A stretch of 64,000 nt of DNA from an uncultured Clostridia bacterium. Lineage in GTDB: Bacteria > Bacillota_I > Bacilli_A > RF39 > UBA660. The position numbers were made by a program, and so were the translations under genes. Positions 23,745 through 38,602 of this stretch are shown piece by piece. The DNA lies in assembly GCA_948433435.1 (NCBI GenBank), contig CAOJDX010000004.1, positions 1,058 to 65,057 on the forward strand, in the 5' to 3' direction. Positions within the stretch are counted from its first letter, which is position 1; the number at the start of each line of letters is the position of its first letter. The notes beneath the pieces were generated by a model, which worked only from the letters and a program-made list of their open reading frames with translations, was not told the DNA's origin and ran no database searches.

Positions 23745-26441
23745 ATGAAAAAAAAATTGAACATTATCTTCTGTTTAATTAGTATAATTTCTATCATATC
23801 AGTAAACCCAGCCTTCGTCTATGCTTTAGAGAATAACTCAGAAAACATTACTAACAATTCAGAAAATAAAATAAATATGAATTTTAATTATAAATTTGAT
23901 ATAAGAGAAACACTTAATGTTTTATATAAAAATAGGAAAATAGAAGATTATCTACAAAAAGTGATTCAAGAAAAAAATGGAATAGAATACCAAATAAATA
24001 TAAATTTATCAGATACTCAACAATCTGGAACATATACCTTAAGTAAAAATAATGAGCAAAAGTCAGCTATTTTTACCTATGAATATACAGAAGAATTTGA
24101 AGTGAATTTAGGTAATCAGGATAAACTTACTTCGATCAAAAATTATATAAAAGAAAATATTGAAGTAATAGAAGACATTTCAGTAGTAAACAAGGTAGAT
24201 GACTTATATACAGTTACAATAGGTGAGAATACTCATGACTTTAAAGTCATCTTTAATGAAAACCTTAAAAAGGAAGAAGTTGAGCCTAAATTTGCAGAAG
24301 AAAATCCAACTGATTACTCTATAGTACCATATGCTCAAACGAATGATGTACCAACAGTTTCCTATTCTACTCATGTAGAAACTCATGGTTGGCAAAATTA
24401 TATAGAAAATGGAGCCTTAGGAGGAACTACTGGAGAGGGAAAAAGATTAGAAGCAATAAAAATAAAATTAAGTAATGTTAATAATTTATCTGGGAGCATT
24501 GAATATCAGACCCATGTAGAAAGTATAGGTTGGCAAAGTTATGTAGCTAACGATGCTTTAGCAGGAACTACCAATCAAGCCAAACAATTAGAAGCGATTA
24601 GAATTAGACTAACAGACGAATTAGCAGCCAACTATGATATTTACTATCGTGTACATGTCAGTGAAATTGGCTGGCTAGATTGGGCTAGTAATGGAAAAAT
24701 TGCCGGTACTGTAGGTTATGGCAAACAACTAGAAGCTATTGAAATAAGAATAGTTAAAAAAGGAGAGTCAGCACCTGGAGCTATAACGAAACCAAGTATT
24801 CAAAAACCACTAACTATTTTCTATTCTACTCATGTAGAAACCTATGGCTGGCAAGACTATGTAGAAAACGGAGCCTTAGGAGGAACTACTGGAGAGGGAA
24901 AAAGATTAGAGGCTATTAAAATAAAACTCTTAAATCAAAATGATTTATCAGGAAATATCGAATACCAAACCCATGTAGAAAGTATTGGCTGGCAAAATTT
25001 TGTAGCCAATGATGCTTTAGCAGGAACCGAAAATCAGGCCAAACAATTAGAAGCGATTAGAATTAGACTAACAGACGAATTAGCAGCTAACTATGATATT
25101 TACTATCGTGTACATGTCAGTGAAATTGGTTGGTTAAACTGGGCTAGTAATGGGGCAGAATCCGGAACTTCAGGCTTCGGAAAACAATTAGAAGCTATTG
25201 AAATAAAGCTTCAGAAAAAAGGAGAGCCAGCTCTTGATAATGGAGGTAATGCCTATATCGAAAAAGGGGATGATATTACCTATAGTGCCCATGTGTCAAC
25301 AATCGGGTGGCAAGATTATGTCGAAAATGGCGATTTAATTGGAACAACTGGAAAGGCTCTACCAATAGAATCTATAAAAATCAACTTAAATGCGACAGTT
25401 TCTGGTAGTGTTAATTATCAGACATATGTTGAAAATGTAGGGTGGCAATCACAAGTTTCTAATAACGAAATATCAGGGACAGTCGGAAAAGGCAAACACA
25501 TAGAAGGAATTAAAATTAATCTGACAGGAGATATTGCTTTATATTATGATGTCTATTATCGGACACATGTTTCGAGTATTGGTTGGCTAGACTGGGCTAG
25601 TAATGGTCAAAAAACAGGAACAAATGGTATTGAACAAGGAATAGAAGCCATTGAAATTTTATTAGTAGCTAAGGGGGCAGAGGCCCCTGGTGATACCACA
25701 ACTACCTACTTAGAAGGAACATGGAAAGAGCAAAATGGGCAAAAATATTATTATAATTATTGGGGTCAAATGGCTGATGACTTTAAAGTCATCGATGGAG
25801 TCAAATATTTCTTTAATTCTTTAGGAGTTTTAATTGGATCAAATGTACAAAAAGTAATAGATATTTCTAAATATCAAGGTAATATAGATTGGGATACATT
25901 AAAAGCCTATGGAAATATTGATGGAGTAATTGTAAGACTATCATCAGGCGTTGGAGAAATAGATCCTTACTTTGCTAGAAATATTGCTGAGCTAAATAGA
26001 GTAGGAATTCCTTACGGAATATATATATATAGTGAAGCTGGAATCAATGGCATAACAGGAGCAGATGAAGCTCAATGGGTTTTAGATATTATCAGAGATC
26101 CAAAGTATAATGTTCATTTGTCTCTACCAATTTATTATGATTTGGAACAATGGGCAAGTAAAAAAAATTCTACTTGGACAGTTAATGAATATAGACCTAT
26201 CGTAGAATCTTTTGATAGAGTAATGACCAGTGCTGGTTTAAATAGCTCATGGGCTATTTATGCTAATAAAAGCTGGGCTGAAAACAAGTTGTATGAATGG
26301 GCTAATAGAATTACTTGGGTAGCTCAATATAATCACTATTGTACATATGATAAAACTTATTATAATATGTGGCAATTTTCATCTACTGAGCAAGTTCCAG
26401 GGATTAATGGTAACGTTGATGTTAATGTTCGTTTTTTATAA
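23745..26441 (+). CDS. Secreted cell-wall hydrolase: signal peptide, N-terminal domain, 9 ChW (clostridial hydrophobic W) repeats in three triplets, one cell-wall-binding-like repeat, and a C-terminal GH25 lysozyme/muramidase domain
   Basis: ChW repeat units Y.THV...GWQ.Y.....AGTTG.GK.LEAI.I.L recur 9 times. C-terminal ...IDISKYQGNIDW...GVIVRLSSG...GIPYGIYIYS is GH25-like. Confidence 0.8.
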   Translation: MKKKLNIIFCLISIISIISVNPAFVYALENNSENITNNSENKINMNFNYKFDIRETLNVLYKNRKIEDYLQKVIQEKNGIEYQININLSDTQQSGTYTLSKNNEQKSAIFTYEYTEEFEVNLGNQDKLTSIKNYIKENIEVIEDISVVNKVDDLYTVTIGENTHDFKVIFNENLKKEEVEPKFAEENPTDYSIVPYAQTNDVPTVSYSTHVETHGWQNYIENGALGGTTGEGKRLEAIKIKLSNVNNLSGSIEYQTHVESIGWQSYVANDALAGTTNQAKQLEAIRIRLTDELAANYDIYYRVHVSEIGWLDWASNGKIAGTVGYGKQLEAIEIRIVKKGESAPGAITKPSIQKPLTIFYSTHVETYGWQDYVENGALGGTTGEGKRLEAIKIKLLNQNDLSGNIEYQTHVESIGWQNFVANDALAGTENQAKQLEAIRIRLTDELAANYDIYYRVHVSEIGWLNWASNGAESGTSGFGKQLEAIEIKLQKKGEPALDNGGNAYIEKGDDITYSAHVSTIGWQDYVENGDLIGTTGKALPIESIKINLNATVSGSVNYQTYVENVGWQSQVSNNEISGTVGKGKHIEGIKINLTGDIALYYDVYYRTHVSSIGWLDWASNGQKTGTNGIEQGIEAIEILLVAKGAEAPGDTTTTYLEGTWKEQNGQKYYYNYWGQMADDFKVIDGVKYFFNSLGVLIGSNVQKVIDISKYQGNIDWDTLKAYGNIDGVIVRLSSGVGEIDPYFARNIAELNRVGIPYGIYIYSEAGINGITGADEAQWVLDIIRDPKYNVHLSLPIYYDLEQWASKKNSTWTVNEYRPIVESFDRVMTSAGLNSSWAIYANKSWAENKLYEWANRITWVAQYNHYCTYDKTYYNMWQFSSTEQVPGINGNVDVNVRFL
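24364..25281. repeat. Two tandem, near-identical 459-bp repeat units inside the ChW/GH25 gene. Each encodes a triplet of ChW repeats. A third, diverged unit follows to about 25700.
   Basis: Unit 1 starts with tattctactcatgtagaaactcatgg at 24364 and unit 2 with tattctactcatgtagaaacctatgg at 24823, an in-frame offset of 459 bp. Long identical stretches include ttagcagc[c/t]aactatgatatttactatcgtgtacatgtcagtgaaattgg. Confidence 0.8.
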
Positions 26442-30274: not shown

Positions 30275-31660
30275 ATGCGCTTTTGTGATAAGCTAGCAAA
30301 AGAAAGAAAAAATAATAATTTGAGTCAGGAACAACTTGCAGACAAATTAGGAGTTTCTAGACAAGCAGTTTCCAAATGGGAATCAGCAGCATCTTATCCA
30401 GATATGGATAAAATTATTCAAATGACAAAAATATTAAATTGTACTTTAGAGGATTTGTTAGATGATGGTACAATGGGAGTAACTAAACCTTACAATAAAT
30501 TAAACATCTATAGTTACTTACAAGACTTTTTAAAATTTATTACTAAATCATACAATATGTTTTGTAGTATGACTTTCAAAGAAAAAATAAAATGTTTATT
30601 TGAATTATCAATAATATTACTATTGTTAATAGGAACTTTTGTATTCTTAGATGAGATTACTTATTATGTCATCTTAGAAGTATTCACAAAAATTCCAGTA
30701 ATTGGCTATGAATTAAGAGATATCTTAAATAATTTAGTAATTGTTATCCTTTTGATATTATCTATTATTATCTTTATTCATTTATTCAAAATTAGATATT
30801 TAGATTACTTTATTACCATTGAAGACTCTAATGCAACAGAAAAAACAATAGAAGATCCAATTGATAAAAAAGAAACTAAGTTTTATAAAGAAAAACAAAA
30901 AGAAAAAATTGTAATTAGAGATCCTAAACATTCTACAATGAGTTTTTATCATTTTCTGATGAAGATAATTATTCTTATTTTAAAAATAACAGCAATCTTC
31001 TTAATTATACCAGTAATATTTACTTTTATTACTTTAATTATTATGGCAATAGTAAGTGTTTGTCATATAAATTATAGTTTAATATTTCTCTACATAGCTT
31101 TAGCTTGTCTTGCTGGTAGTTTATTATGTTACTTAATCCTTAATTTTCTATATAATTTTATTTTCAATAAAGAAATTAACTTTAAAAGAATATTTATAAT
31201 GATGATCAGTAGCTTTGTTGTAATAGGAATTTCTACAGGTCTATTCATTACCAATATCCTAAATTGCAAGCTACTAGACAACTATGATGATCTATCAAAA
31301 ATTACTAAGACAGAGTATCTACAAATAAATCCCAATACTGTTATTTATTATCCACATGACTATAAAAAGGGAATCATTGAATATAATATAGATAATAATA
31401 TAACTGAAGCAAAAATGGAAGTTACTTATTTAAGTGGAACAACTTATCACTTAACCCATAATACAGAAGACTTAGAAAAGGACTATTATTTTATTTATCC
31501 TTCAGGGATAGATTTATTAAATGCCTATAAAATTGTGATAAATGATTTAAAACATAAAATAATTAGAAATTACAATTACCAAAATATAACTAAAATAAAA
31601 ATTTATGTAACCGAAAAAGATTATCAAATATTAAAACAAAATAGTAATAATATAGAATAG
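30275..31660 (+). CDS. Membrane-bound XRE-family HTH transcriptional regulator (N-terminal HTH_3, central TM segments, C-terminal extracytoplasmic domain)
   Basis: LSQEQLADKLGVSRQAVSKWESAASYPDMDKIIQMTKILNCTLEDLL is a canonical XRE HTH. Multiple TM segments follow. RBS GGAGGTG upstream. Confidence 0.65.
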   Translation: MRFCDKLAKERKNNNLSQEQLADKLGVSRQAVSKWESAASYPDMDKIIQMTKILNCTLEDLLDDGTMGVTKPYNKLNIYSYLQDFLKFITKSYNMFCSMTFKEKIKCLFELSIILLLLIGTFVFLDEITYYVILEVFTKIPVIGYELRDILNNLVIVILLILSIIIFIHLFKIRYLDYFITIEDSNATEKTIEDPIDKKETKFYKEKQKEKIVIRDPKHSTMSFYHFLMKIIILILKITAIFLIIPVIFTFITLIIMAIVSVCHINYSLIFLYIALACLAGSLLCYLILNFLYNFIFNKEINFKRIFIMMISSFVVIGISTGLFITNILNCKLLDNYDDLSKITKTEYLQINPNTVIYYPHDYKKGIIEYNIDNNITEAKMEVTYLSGTTYHLTHNTEDLEKDYYFIYPSGIDLLNAYKIVINDLKHKIIRNYNYQNITKIKIYVTEKDYQILKQNSNNIE

Positions 31661-33434: not shown

Positions 33435-33452
33435 AAAAATTAGGGATGTTAT

Positions 33453-34541
33453 ATGAAACAAGAACCATTTACTCAATTTTATATTAAAAAAATAATGAAA
33501 AACAAAAAGTCGGCTAATTCGTCAAAAGATTCAGTATCTTTTATAAAAAATAATTATGAAAAATTATTAGAGACTATTCCAGAAGGCGAATTAGTTCCCG
33601 TAATTAGAACACTATACCAATATAAAGAATTGAAAAAGTTCATGGATGAAAAATTTGTTTTAAATATGAGTAAAGCAAAAAATTATTCTATAGATATGAT
33701 CGTAGAAATTTATAATAATGGAAGAAGTAGGGAAGAACAAGATCAATTTTTATGTGAAAAATTACCATTAATAATTGATCAAATAGATAGCAATAGTCTC
33801 TTTCACTATTTAAAATGGAAAAAAATAAGTCCGAAAATAAGAGAAAAATTAAATCAAAAAATTCTTCAATTTAAAGAAGATTACATTAGGAATTATATTC
33901 TAAAAAACCAAAGTAAAGATTATCACTTTGATGAAGATACAGCATATTTATTAACCAAGCTAATAGAAGAGATTTTAGTCCATGAACAAAAAGATTATAT
34001 AGACATCAATTATCTTCAAAGTGGAAGCTATTCTCACACCTTTGAAATAGGCTCTAAAATATTGAAAATTGGACAACGAAGAAAAACTTATCAAATCCCC
34101 TATGACAAAAGAATAATACAACCATTAATTAGAGTGGATTTAACAGATTTATCCTCTACTAATATAGGAACAATTGAGGTATGTGAAAGAGTGTTAACAG
34201 ATGTTAATTTAAATGAAGAAGATTTATATAAAATATATAAAGATTTCAGAGTACGAGGTAAAATTTGGACCGATGTCAAAAGCAGTAATATAGGAATACT
34301 ATTGAAAGATAATAAAAGGCACTGGAATACTCCTTTAGGAGAGTCAAAAAGAGCAGTTGGATATTTAGAAGATGAATATTTTGATCAGGATCATGAAATT
34401 TTATCAGCTGGTGAACCAGTAGTTTTAGATAGCGATTTTATTTATAAAGAAGATGACCCTTATATTGTTTGGATAACATTATTGTCAATTGAATTTGAGA
34501 AAAAATATCAATTAGAAATGAAAAAATCAAAGGAAAAGTAA
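33453..34541 (+). CDS. Hypothetical protein: about 190-aa helical N-terminal domain plus C-terminal atypical protein-kinase-like domain (minimal RIO/Kdo-kinase-like)
   Basis: Gly-rich loop SGSYSHTFEIGSKILKI (G-loop then Lys), catalytic-loop-like WTDVKSSNIGIL (D-x-K-x-x-N) and DFG-like VVLDSDF. Read from sequence only. Confidence 0.5.
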   Translation: MKQEPFTQFYIKKIMKNKKSANSSKDSVSFIKNNYEKLLETIPEGELVPVIRTLYQYKELKKFMDEKFVLNMSKAKNYSIDMIVEIYNNGRSREEQDQFLCEKLPLIIDQIDSNSLFHYLKWKKISPKIREKLNQKILQFKEDYIRNYILKNQSKDYHFDEDTAYLLTKLIEEILVHEQKDYIDINYLQSGSYSHTFEIGSKILKIGQRRKTYQIPYDKRIIQPLIRVDLTDLSSTNIGTIEVCERVLTDVNLNEEDLYKIYKDFRVRGKIWTDVKSSNIGILLKDNKRHWNTPLGESKRAVGYLEDEYFDQDHEILSAGEPVVLDSDFIYKEDDPYIVWITLLSIEFEKKYQLEMKKSKEK

Positions 34542-34590
34542 AGATCTAAATTTTGTATTTTAATACAAATAGATAGAATAGGGGGCTTAT

Positions 34591-35435
34591 ATGCAAAGTA
34601 ATCAAATAATAGGAATAACTACTACATATATTGATAATTTAATGAAGGATAAAAATGCTATTCCTTATATTAAAAAAAATTATGAAAAATTGCTTAACCA
34701 TATTTCTCATAATTATATAACATCTGTTTTAATTAAGTTATATAGAAATAAAGAATTACAAAGCTTTATGGATGAAAAATTTTGTGTAACTTTACAAAAA
34801 TTTCCAGCTAATAAAATAGAAACAATTATTAGTATTTATATTTATAATAGAAGTCCTGAAGAAGCTACTATTTTTCTAAATGAAAAACTTAGTGAGTTAA
34901 TCAATAAGGAAGATAATATTCGTTTTTTATATTACCTAAAATTTAAGGATATTAGTGAAGAAATAAGAGAAAAATTAAATAACAGAATCAAAAAATATAA
35001 AGAGGACTATATAAAATTATATATAATGAAAAATCAAAAATATTATTGGCTTGATGAGGAAATGCTTGCTTTATTAGAGGGATTATTCCAAGAAATACTA
35101 GATCATGAGGGAAAGGAATGGATCGATATAGAATATATTGATTCAGGAGGTTACTCGCATGTTTATGAAATCGGTTCTAAAGTATTAAAAATTGGCAAAG
35201 AAAGAAATTCCTATAAAATTCCTTATCACAGAAGAATATTACAACTGGCTTTATAGAAGATCAACAATTTGATCTAAATGAAGAAGGTTTAAGAAAAGGA
35301 GAGTTAGTTATACTAGACAGCGATTATATTTTCTATGAAAATGATCCCCATATAGAATGGGTAAACCCTTTAGCTGTTTTATTTGAAGAAAGATATCAAT
35401 TAGAAAAAAATATTTCTAAAAATAAATTAAAATAA
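34591..35435 (+). pseudogene. Degenerate paralog of the 33453 gene. The N-terminal domain and G-loop are retained, the catalytic segment is deleted, and a frameshift separates a C-terminal remnant (35257..35435).
   Basis: The 34591..35256 ORF matches the paralog through YSHVYEIGSKVLKIGKERNSYKIPYHRRILQ and then stops. The downstream frame encodes GELVILDSDYIFYENDPHIEWVNPLAVLFEERYQLEK, matching the paralog C-terminus. About 95 aa including the D-x-K-x-x-N loop are missing. Confidence 0.55.
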
Positions 35436-37066: not shown

Positions 37067-38215
37067 GTGAATATCTTGGAACAAGAAAGTAAAAAATTAA
37101 CCAAAAAACAATTAAGAGGATTGCGAAAATTTAGGAGGAAAACTATTACAATCATAAGTATAATTTCCCTAATATCCTTATGGTTTAAAATAGGCCTAAA
37201 TCCTAACTGGCATTTTAATCATGTTGTAGCAGAAGGCTTAACACTATTTATTTTAATACTAATGGGAATCTTGTCAAATATTAGAAATGATTTTCCAATC
37301 TTTCAATTTAGAAAATTTGAATTTACGAAAGAATTTTCTTACTCAATAATAACAACATTCTCATTACTATTTATATTTATAATTTATAAAAATATTGTTG
37401 ATGTCAATTTCATCACATACATTGCTAATTTAAGTTTACACGATTTATCAACAATTATAGTATTTATAACTCCTATACTTTTACTAATTATCTATTTAAT
37501 TTATATTAGTTTTAAAATATTAGATGATAAGCAAGAACAATTCTCTAAAAAAGAAGCTATATATTCTACCGAAATTGAAAGAAATCTTAATCAATATAAA
37601 AGCTTAACCATTAAATTTATTTTTATAATAATGTTAATTTCAATTTGGATCAAGATTGGCTTCAATAATAATTTTTTCCTTTCAACAATCATCACTGAAT
37701 TGCTTTCTATATTTTCCATTACTCTTTTATGGATCATAGGAAACATAAAAAATAAATTAACTCCTTTCTATAACTGTCATTTTAAAATAGATAGATACTT
37801 CTTCTATTCACTACTTCTTCCATATTTGTTAATTGTGATTTATAGTGGTTTTAATTTTGATTTTCGTTTTTTAATAAATAGTATGGATTTAAAACGATTG
37901 ATTTCACTGCTAGTTTATATGTCTCCTTTATTTTTAATTTCCTCTATATTATTTTACATTGGATGTAGATGTCCAGAAAAAATAAAAGATTATAAGAAAA
38001 CTTATCATATAAAAAAATCAAAGGAAAGACAAAATGTCTTATTCTCTTTAGGACTAACAGCTATCTTATCAATTCTTCTATTTATTTACTGCTTTACTCA
38101 GATTGCCCCAAAACATAGCCTAGAAAATATTCTTCAGGCAATTATCATTTTTATTCCTTTATCTGTAGTATTTTATTTAATAATTTATTCGGAAATAAGA
38201 GAATTTAATAAATAA
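37067..38215 (+). CDS. Hypothetical polytopic membrane protein with an internal duplication
   Basis: 382 aa. Repeated module LISLWFKIGLNPNWHF... / MLISIWIKIGFNNNFF.... Confidence 0.45.
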   Translation: MNILEQESKKLTKKQLRGLRKFRRKTITIISIISLISLWFKIGLNPNWHFNHVVAEGLTLFILILMGILSNIRNDFPIFQFRKFEFTKEFSYSIITTFSLLFIFIIYKNIVDVNFITYIANLSLHDLSTIIVFITPILLLIIYLIYISFKILDDKQEQFSKKEAIYSTEIERNLNQYKSLTIKFIFIIMLISIWIKIGFNNNFFLSTIITELLSIFSITLLWIIGNIKNKLTPFYNCHFKIDRYFFYSLLLPYLLIVIYSGFNFDFRFLINSMDLKRLISLLVYMSPLFLISSILFYIGCRCPEKIKDYKKTYHIKKSKERQNVLFSLGLTAILSILLFIYCFTQIAPKHSLENILQAIIIFIPLSVVFYLIIYSEIREFNK

Positions 38216-38263: not shown

Positions 38264-38602
38264 ATGAAAGAGTTCAAAATAAAGGGACAGGATATTAAAC
38301 CACTGCTAGAATGGGAAGGACCTAGTGGTGCTATCGCAACAGACAAAATAATGGTCGAAGGAAATAAAATAGGGTATATGTACAGAGAAGAACCCAACAA
38401 AAACTATCCAGATAGTGGTTGGAGATTTTTTCAGGGTGAAGAAAGTGATGAATACATTAGTAATATTAAAAATTCAGGAATATATGATTTAAATACTATC
38501 TGTAATTATGATCCAGATATTATTCCTTTACTAAAATCACCTTATGGTATAGCTTACTATAGAGATAAAATGGGAACATTCAGAGGAGAAAAATTAAAAT
38601 AA
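38264..38602 (+). CDS. Small conserved hypothetical protein, possibly DUF2185/Imm33-like. The six-frame ORF starts at 38225; the internal Met at 38264 with RBS AAGGAGG is preferred.
   Basis: GGAGGTAGTT lies 6 nt before the ATG at 38264. Soluble, W/G-rich (EWEGPSGAIATDKIMVEGNKIGYMYREEP...DSGWRFFQGEE). Confidence 0.4.
   Translation: MKEFKIKGQDIKPLLEWEGPSGAIATDKIMVEGNKIGYMYREEPNKNYPDSGWRFFQGEESDEYISNIKNSGIYDLNTICNYDPDIIPLLKSPYGIAYYRDKMGTFRGEKLK

Follow-up and report, generated by a model that had tools for sequence, protein, structure and literature searches.

A putative minimal kinase-like protein family in uncultured Bacilli-type genomes and the recent disruption of one of its tandem members

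We analysed a 64,000-nt stretch of DNA (hereafter, the window) from an uncultured Clostridia bacterium (GenBank assembly GCA_948433435.1, contig CAOJDX010000004.1, positions 1,058 to 65,057 of the forward strand), concentrating on gene K1, which codes for a 362-aa protein, and on K2, a broken paralogue located directly downstream of it. The K1 product is probably a cytoplasmic enzyme of an undescribed family within the known protein-kinase-like (PKL) superfamily, with ATP-dependent phosphotransfer as its most likely activity, while K2 is an old tandem paralogue that a single deletion has converted to a null allele in this strain. A preliminary description of the locus, made from the sequence alone, had pointed to a minimal kinase fold in K1 and to a decaying copy next to it.

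The kinase-like core of K1

K1 is an intact open reading frame (ORF) whose parts, in window coordinates, are as follows.

33442..33446, + strand: Shine-Dalgarno-like AGGGA 5′ of K1, read from the sequence
33453..34541, + strand: K1, intact ORF of 362 aa, with all the motifs quoted in the preliminary description present
33453..33986, + strand: N-terminal all-helical domain, residues 1-178, as predicted in the secondary structure of the AlphaFold2 (AF2) model
33999..34538, + strand: minimal kinase-like core, residues 183-362 (AF2 models, Foldseek, BFVD, hhalign)
34023..34067, + strand: Gly-loop G191-S-Y-S194, between β1 and β2, through K205 in β3 (conservation, hhalign)
34272..34289, + strand: catalytic-loop equivalent D274-V-K-S-S-N279 (conservation; aligned to RDLKPEN)
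34428..34436, + strand: D326-S-D328, following β8 as the metal-binding Asp of DFG would, judged by the order of secondary-structure elements

The full-length AF2 model of K1, built on a 23-sequence alignment, had a mean predicted local distance difference test score (pLDDT) of 84 and a predicted template modelling score (pTM) of 0.78, and a model of the core only agreed with it (pLDDT 83, pTM 0.79). Helices were predicted throughout residues 8-178, the last of them (161-178) bearing E173 and E178. In residues 186-361 the order of strands and helices is that expected of a kinase N-lobe and catalytic core: β1-β3, β4, β5/hinge, one helix, the catalytic loop, a 37-residue insert, β8, the D-x-D, β9 and a terminal helix. 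When the two models were compared with the PDB using Foldseek, the top 50 matches were protein kinases only, the best being PINK1, p38/ERK/JNK, Rio2 (4gyi; E 6.9e-4, rank 12, phospho-aspartate state), ROCK and CLK, with E-values from 1.8e-4 and probabilities of 0.95-1.00. The top matches in BFVD, a viral structure library, were mostly annotated kinases and included T7-like phage kinases as well as RIO-, APH-, ChoK- and ABC1-like proteins. The similarity being distant, these model-based matches assign a fold class and not a family.

The profile of the family core was also aligned by hhalign with four eukaryotic-type kinases (PKA, PknB, CDK2 and p38), which gave a probability of 82% and a pairwise E-value of 1e-5. 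The reference sequences were checked against the PDB, where p38 and PknB matched with E ~1e-115. The alignment pairs SGSYSHTFEIG of K1 with the Gly-loop GTGSFGRVMLV of PKA, IEVCE with YMVME (the hinge) and WTDVKSSN with YRDLKPEN (the catalytic loop).

Conservation was counted over 137 homologues, mostly 21-36% identical to K1. The residues of catalytic type are nearly invariant (K205 99%, D274 99%, N279 100%, D326 99% and D328 98%), and so are G191 (96%), S194 (91%) and E242 (99%). Further invariants are specific to the family: R227 and N287 (100% each), R210, R266, G281 and an LLKDN motif, after which the 37-residue insert begins. Since they are conserved across 137 diverged homologues, the motifs have not arisen by chance. 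K205 is the candidate ATP-anchoring Lys; its equivalence, and that of D326, would follow from the order of secondary-structure elements in the models. K276, the Lys of D-x-K-x-x-N, is kept in the close clade and not family-wide, and the Ser/Thr-kinase flavour of this segment is therefore limited to that clade.

The modelled core has the architecture that defines the PKL superfamily, namely a two-lobed fold with a five-stranded N-lobe sheet, a hinge and a catalytic-loop/metal-loop core, and the β3 Lys, the catalytic Asp and Asn and the metal-binding Asp come in the right order. Hanks-type kinases (PknB/PrkC, YabT) share with K1 the Gly-loop, the hinge and the D-x-K-x-x-N loop as aligned by hhalign. 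Unlike them, the K1 family has no match to the Pkinase hidden Markov model (HMM), no HRD Arg, no DFG and no C-lobe: K1 reads W-T-D and D-S-D-F where Hanks kinases have HRD and DFG, and the D-x-D is followed by ~35 residues forming one helix, without an activation segment with APE and without subdomains VIII-XI. We conclude that the K1 family is an undescribed family within the known kinase-like superfamily.

Most of what the preliminary description had said of K1 was borne out. The ORF, the AF2 models and the conservation agree with a 362-aa protein that has a helical N-terminal half and ordered motifs in its C-terminal half. Structure prediction, which it had proposed as a check, returned a kinase fold and not a non-kinase one, lacking the HRD Arg as it had claimed. 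The resemblance to RIO kinases is seen in the Rio2 match among the Foldseek top 50, though the RIO1 HMM found nothing. The Gly-loop, Lys, D..N and DSDF of its motif set are real features of the family, whereas the Lys of D-x-K-x-x-N belongs to the close clade.

Sequence models recognised neither protein. Pfam gave nothing significant for K1 or K2; the sole full-length match, to C2185-like_N, was sub-threshold (E 0.031), and neither Pkinase nor RIO1 matched either protein at E<=1. NCBIfam gave a noise-level match to Mph(C) on the N-domain of K2 only (E 0.096, 12 bits against a cut-off of 550), and no PADLOC or PHROG model matched K1 or K2. Searches of the PDB by sequence or profile either came back empty or matched designed repeat proteins and P450 through low-complexity helices.

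Neither K1 nor K2 contains a signal peptide, a hydrophobic segment or a membrane segment, and a hydrophobic segment is absent from 133 of 137 family members; K1 is thus presumably cytoplasmic. Two distant members, P0097 (584 aa) and P0121 (506 aa), have a strongly hydrophobic C-terminal segment (a tail anchor), which recalls the arrangement in YabT. No informative domain fusion was found by Pfam in ten unusually long family members; a match to Ribonuc_2-5A (KEN) directly after the kinase-like core of P0097 was sub-threshold (E 0.0037) and was treated as noise.

The N-terminal domain varies over the family in both length and sequence, mean column conservation over the 137 members being 0.29, versus 0.49 in the C-terminal domain. 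In some homologues (e.g., at loci L035, L029 and L020) the same region of the N-domain profile is matched two or three times, a pattern that fits a repeat-built helical domain of variable size. The domain may serve as a substrate- or partner-binding module.

Distribution of the family and its possible activity

A HMMER scan of 1.84 billion cluster representatives retrieved 900 representative clusters (50% identity) at E<=1e-3, and none of 22 K1 homologues carries a precomputed Pfam domain. A scan of one genome per GTDB species gave 43 loci, all of them in uncultured metagenome-assembled genomes (MAGs) labelled Bacilli, Erysipelotrichaceae, Mycoplasmatota/Tenericutes or “Clostridia”, many from human or animal gut. 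Among the genomes sampled here, the family is confined to uncultured, mostly gut-derived Bacilli-type MAGs. Two adjacent full-length copies are found at 7 of the 44 loci compared, and two MAGs have copies at two separate loci.

The gene directly upstream and on the same strand is Tex at seven loci, and an eighth (L012) has Tex with two short ORFs in between. PriA occupies this position at five loci, Fpg at four, an NAGPA-domain gene at four (the window included) and pilin-like genes at three; RecG, RecD2, DnaE, UDG, MiaA (behind MutL), Lon, LepA, a histidine phosphatase (behind TyrRS), TyrRS and a Big_2 protein were each seen once. In several clades the chromosomal position among housekeeping genes is stable. 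Replication and repair genes (PriA, RecG, RecD2, Fpg, UDG, DnaE, MutL-MiaA) make up a striking share of these upstream neighbours, a share noticed post hoc and set against no proper background. Such genes, or Tex, were noted at L004-L010, L016, L020-L024 and L033-L039. This adjacency may reflect a functional link or simply small genomes rich in housekeeping genes, and we treat it as a lead only.

As an active kinase, K1 would hold ATP by K205 and the Gly-loop, D274 would act as the catalytic base, and N279 and D326 would bind Mg, with the N-terminal domain selecting the substrate or partner. By analogy with RIO, Bud32 and OspG/NleH, a protein substrate, or RIO-like cycles of autophosphorylation/ATPase activity, would be the first guess.

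Several observations weigh against a catalytically active kinase of this kind. Query-normalised TM-scores of the Foldseek matches are just 0.31-0.44, with high root-mean-square deviation, so that the structural similarity is weak. The Pfam HMMs for Pkinase, RIO1, Kdo, APH, ABC1 and CotH miss all 14 isolated core sequences at E<=10 (none of the families Kdo/WaaP, APH/ChoK, ABC1/UbiB and CotH was matched), and PDB kinases were not matched by phmmer or by family profiles. In neither AF2 model is there an αC helix between β3 (202-207) and β4 (226-229), which leaves the Lys-Glu salt bridge typical of active kinases unaccounted for; the conserved Glu residues (E178 90%, E173 82%) sit in the helix that precedes β1. 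An acidic residue two positions past the metal-binding Asp, as in D-x-D, is found more typically in choline/aminoglycoside-type small-molecule kinases than in protein kinases. No substrate, partner or conserved operon emerged, any one neighbour cluster being common to at most 8 of 44 loci. Lastly, the function is dispensable, since both copies are broken in at least one strain (L059/L060, see below).

Of the alternatives, the one that stands up best, though we think it rather unlikely, is that the core works as a choline/aminoglycoside/YihE-type small-molecule kinase, acting on a metabolite, an antibiotic or a cell-envelope precursor. APH, ChoK and YihE, like K1, have the acid two positions past the metal-binding Asp and no HRD Arg, and in the K1 family this second acid of D-x-D is 98% conserved. 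In the clade of the window, K1 follows an NAGPA (phosphodiester glycosidase) gene by 18 nt, behind a cell-envelope glycan cluster, and the BFVD matches include APH-like, ChoK-like and ABC1-like proteins. Yet the APH, ChoK and Kdo HMMs stayed silent at E<=10, protein kinases and Rio2, not APH or ChoK, rank first among the PDB neighbours, the large helical C-lobe of such kinases is missing here, and the NAGPA neighbourhood is limited to 4 of the 44 loci.

Less likely again is a non-catalytic kinase-fold scaffold or RIO-like ATPase switch, in which nucleotide binding would be the function and the helical domain the working part. The missing activation segment, the αC helix not predicted in its usual place and the place of phospho-aspartate Rio2 among the closest structures would all agree with it, and kinase-fold scaffolds such as SrfA-N are documented (bioRxiv 10.64898/2026.09.18.752743). 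But a pure scaffold would not be expected to keep K205, D274, N279, D326 and D328 at 98-100% over such divergence. That conservation would suit the ATPase-switch version, which in part coincides with phosphotransfer by an active enzyme, the activity that we still regard as the most probable for K1.

The closest known parallels are RIO kinases (Rio1/Rio2) and Bud32/PRPK, which, like K1, have a minimal core without activation segment or substrate-binding subdomains, keep the catalytic Asp..Asn and the metal-binding Asp, lack the HRD Arg and carry an extra N-terminal helical domain. K1 differs from RIO in the RIO1 HMM being unmatched (E<=10), in having no αC predicted between β3 and β4, in the 37-residue insert after LLKDN, in its unrelated and variable N-domain and in a family range restricted, here, to uncultured Bacilli-type MAGs. 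OspG and NleH also have a core without subdomains VIII-XI, and NleH an N-terminal non-kinase region as well; these kinases are still active (PMC12756638). Unlike K1, they act as secreted effectors in Gram-negative pathogens and depend on host E2~ubiquitin for activation, whereas K1 has no secretion-system context, resides in a commensal host of Gram-positive type and showed no detectable sequence relationship to them.

Kinase-like families are reported regularly by structure-based surveys (the Legionella pan-kinome, PMC9758233; the oral microbiome, bioRxiv 10.64898/2026.09.18.752743; KINtaro, PMC10870513), and the K1 family resembles those families in having a fold that is invisible to sequence models and recognised by predicted structure and catalytic residues. 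Term searching of the oral-microbiome preprint (bioRxiv 10.64898/2026.09.18.752743) found no mention of Bacilli, Erysipelotrichaceae or Mycoplasma; we saw no sign that the K1 family is among the families of these surveys, whose lists were not searched by sequence.

Were it active, K1 would bring in a family of minimal kinases that escapes sequence models and that is spread through a large group of gut Bacilli still uncultured (~900 clusters at 50% identity; 43 GTDB species representatives). Its very small core, apparently without a canonical αC, could show how little a kinase fold needs. The practical benefit will stay modest before a substrate is identified, and the finding extends a known theme.

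Disruption of K2 and recurrent loss in related strains

K2 starts 49 bases downstream of K1 and consists of the following parts.

34580..34585, + strand: Shine-Dalgarno-like AGGGGG 5′ of K2, read from the sequence
34591..35435, + strand: K2, the whole broken paralogue (ORF and frame reading)
34591..35245, + strand: 5′ part of K2 with the N-domain, Gly-loop and β3 Lys, 100% identical to contig L044 up to 35245
35245..35246, + strand: deletion junction, between these two bases (alignment and BLAST versus L044)
35247..35435, + strand: 3′ remnant of K2, GFIEDQQFDLNEEGLRKGELVILDSDYIFYENDPHIEWVNPLAVLFEERYQLEKNISKNKLK followed by the stop, out of frame with the 5′ part (three-frame translation)

The open frame of K2 (34591..35256, stop at 35254..35256) codes for 221 aa, matches positions 15-234 of the family profile and gives a product resembling the first 218 residues of K1. 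The remnant starts at GGC 35247, ends with the stop at 35433..35435 and comprises the last 62 codons, identical to the end of an intact 359-aa K2. This intact allele is carried by L044 (L044:9139-10218), a metagenomic contig from another sample with an identical K1. The window is 100% identical to L044 along 9,793 bp on the upstream side and 7,061 bp on the downstream side (16.9 kb), the sole difference being the absence of L044:9794-10028, i.e., 235 bp, or 78 codons plus 1 nt. The lost segment encodes β4, the hinge, the catalytic loop and LLKDN, and its removal was clean and blunt, with neither microhomology nor a flanking repeat at the junction. One deletion event thus explains both the missing residues and the frameshift.

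The 221-aa product of the deleted allele is on record on 3 contigs, and a separate look-up found it on 5 contigs from at least three samples (ERZ14864656, ERZ14864016, SRR15604479); the intact 359-aa K2 is on record on 21 contigs. Judging from these sequences, K2 is a null allele in this strain and catalytically intact in most sampled strains. Its inactivation is very recent, a single deletion in an otherwise identical haplotype and not long erosion. That the organism has an intact gene and the truncation arose in assembly or sequencing is very improbable: flanks 100% identical to those of intact-gene contigs are what an assembly collapse would also give, but the identical 221-aa product was assembled independently, and the junction has no flanking repeat by which a collapse could come about.

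The duplication itself is old, since K1 and the intact K2 share 52% aa identity, K2 is closer to its orthologues P0005 and P0006 of other organisms (64-69%) than to K1, and the related lineage L053 also has the order NAGPA, K1, K2, trigger factor. Aligning the paralogues at the DNA level, as had been proposed earlier, gave ~69% identity over the alignable part. Judged by these comparisons, the inactivation alone is recent.

These results bear unevenly on what the preliminary description had said of K2. That the downstream copy is an inactivated paralogue holds, given its profile match and a tail readable in another frame; so do the loss of the catalytic loop and the frameshift, although the loss is 78 codons plus 1 nt in one event and not about 95 aa. 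The second segment it had drawn, 35257..35435, is not codon-aligned, the codons of the remnant beginning at 35247, and the portrayal of a recently duplicated family with one member “dying” gives way to an old pair and a single very recent deletion. The “accessory block” in which it had placed the genes is likewise not supported. GTDB representatives L001-L003 and L053 keep the genes in synteny (185-aa membrane protein, NAGPA, K, trigger factor, membrane protein); GC content is uniform; and no integrase or transposase family was found among precomputed Pfam matches for the genes called in the ~8 kb to each side of K1. The locus is not a mobile island.

In related species K is the most diverged gene of the syntenic block, as can be seen from identities to the window (Tig, trigger factor):

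L001: NAGPA 93%, Tig 81%, K 53%
L053: NAGPA 94%, Tig 84%, K1 50%, K2 69%
L003: NAGPA 83%, Tig 70%, K 35%

The fast evolution suggested earlier is thus seen, the family diverging faster than its housekeeping neighbours. Pairwise ratios of nonsynonymous to synonymous substitution rates (dN/dS) between the window and the sister lineage L058 were as follows:

K1 0.17, K2 0.10
NAGPA 0.02, Tig 0.06, Imm33 0.09
membrane protein 0.11, HD protein 0.13

K1 and K2 are under purifying selection about as strong as that on ordinary genes outside the core, and positive selection was not detectable on either. Positive selection on K1 was considered and rejected at a pairwise dN/dS of 0.17 (N-domain 0.18, core 0.14).

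Unexpectedly, although dN/dS is 0.10-0.17, sister strains and species carry at least five more independent lesions that inactivate K2, beyond the deletion in the window, and one that inactivates K1. A GAA-to-TAA nonsense change is present in K2 of L045 (position 9367) and L047, and a TGG-to-TGA change at a conserved Trp in K2 of L057 (L057:2187-3266) and L058 (L058:2263-3342). L059 (2313-4103) and L060 have two nonsense codons in K2, and K1 is frameshifted there as well, by the loss of one A from an A6 run. In L053-L055 (L053:4882-5903) K2 carries a ~50-nt deletion with a frameshift, and in L056 (L056:137-1235) the single family gene visible beside tig, closer to K1 than to K2, is frameshifted. 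GTDB representatives L017 and L019 have split copies. Since several of the lesions recur in independent samples, most of them are real. The gene has been under purifying selection until recently and repeatedly inactivated in wild populations. Redundancy of K1 and K2 may account for part of the recurrent loss, and a conditional cost is also possible. The repeated independent knock-outs of K2 offer a natural population-genetic handle on function, through comparison of strains with and without K2.

In K2 of L057/L058 the codons past the TGA still have a dN/dS of 0.11. The 50 long ORFs of the window end in TAA (34), TAG (15) or TGA (1), and Trp is encoded by TGG (142 codons). Reading TGA as Trp (genetic code 4) in L057/L058 K2 was rejected on account of the 142 TGG codons and of long ORFs unbroken by TGA.

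The preliminary description had suggested a fast-evolving surface, toxin or immunity role, i.e., a conflict family whose members are born and die in an accessory block. The divergence of K (53% in L001, 35% in L003), the adjacent full-length copies at 7 of 44 loci, the two MAGs with copies at two loci, the at least six independent knock-outs of K2 plus one of K1 within a narrow clade and an Imm33 gene three genes downstream of K2 all speak for such a family. We nevertheless hold it improbable: the proteins have no signal peptide or membrane segment and match no defence or phage family (PADLOC, PHROG), no immunity or secretion partner gene is conserved among the 44 loci, the position among housekeeping genes is stable in several clades, and dN/dS values of 0.10-0.17 are in the range of the ordinary neighbours HD (0.13) and membrane protein (0.11). 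The proposed surface, toxin or immunity role therefore found no backing.

A more speculative scenario, quite unlikely in our estimate, would combine several of these observations: a lineage-specific kinase-like family of reduced-genome gut Bacilli, in which the role of αC is perhaps taken by the Glu-bearing helix of the N-domain, whose members might be conditionally costly and hence repeatedly knocked out in the wild, pointing to antagonistic selection by phage, host or competitors, and which might be tied to DNA replication or repair.

Genes surrounding the K pair

GC content of the window is low (~0.23-0.34), and nearly all long ORFs are on the + strand. Upstream of the K pair lies a cell-envelope block with a polysaccharide flippase, GT1/GT2/GT4, a ChW-repeat GH25 lysozyme, GtrA, an HTH-membrane protein, the 185-aa membrane protein and NAGPA; downstream are trigger factor and NAD-salvage genes. 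Since just 18 nt separate the stop of the NAGPA-domain gene from K1, as read from the sequence, the two are likely co-transcribed. Rfam found no RNA family over the whole window, and scanning this AT-rich DNA for promoters and terminators was not informative, with 55 promoter-like sites where 47 were expected. Four further genes deserve mention.

23745..26441, + strand: 898-aa protein carrying nine ChW (clostridial hydrophobic W) repeats, with a GH25 lysozyme domain at its C terminus
30275..31660, + strand: 461-aa protein with an N-terminal XRE-type helix-turn-helix (HTH), then several membrane segments
38264..38602, + strand: Imm33 (polymorphic-toxin immunity protein 33) family gene, directly before the HD-domain gene, with no toxin gene seen nearby
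37067..38215, + strand: 382-aa multi-pass membrane protein with no Pfam domain

The ChW/GH25 gene lies in the only stretch of raised GC in the window (0.34), inside the glycan cluster (flippase, GT1/GT2/GT4, GtrA; ~19-28.3 kb). In the 461-aa protein the HTH alone matches PADLOC models (RmrA and control-protein models), and the gene is conserved upstream of the block of 185-aa membrane protein, NAGPA and K. The two halves of the 382-aa membrane protein resemble an internal duplication (…ISLISLWFKIGLNPNW… and …IMLISIWIKIGFNNNF…), and the gene is kept beside trigger factor in related species at just 48-64% identity.

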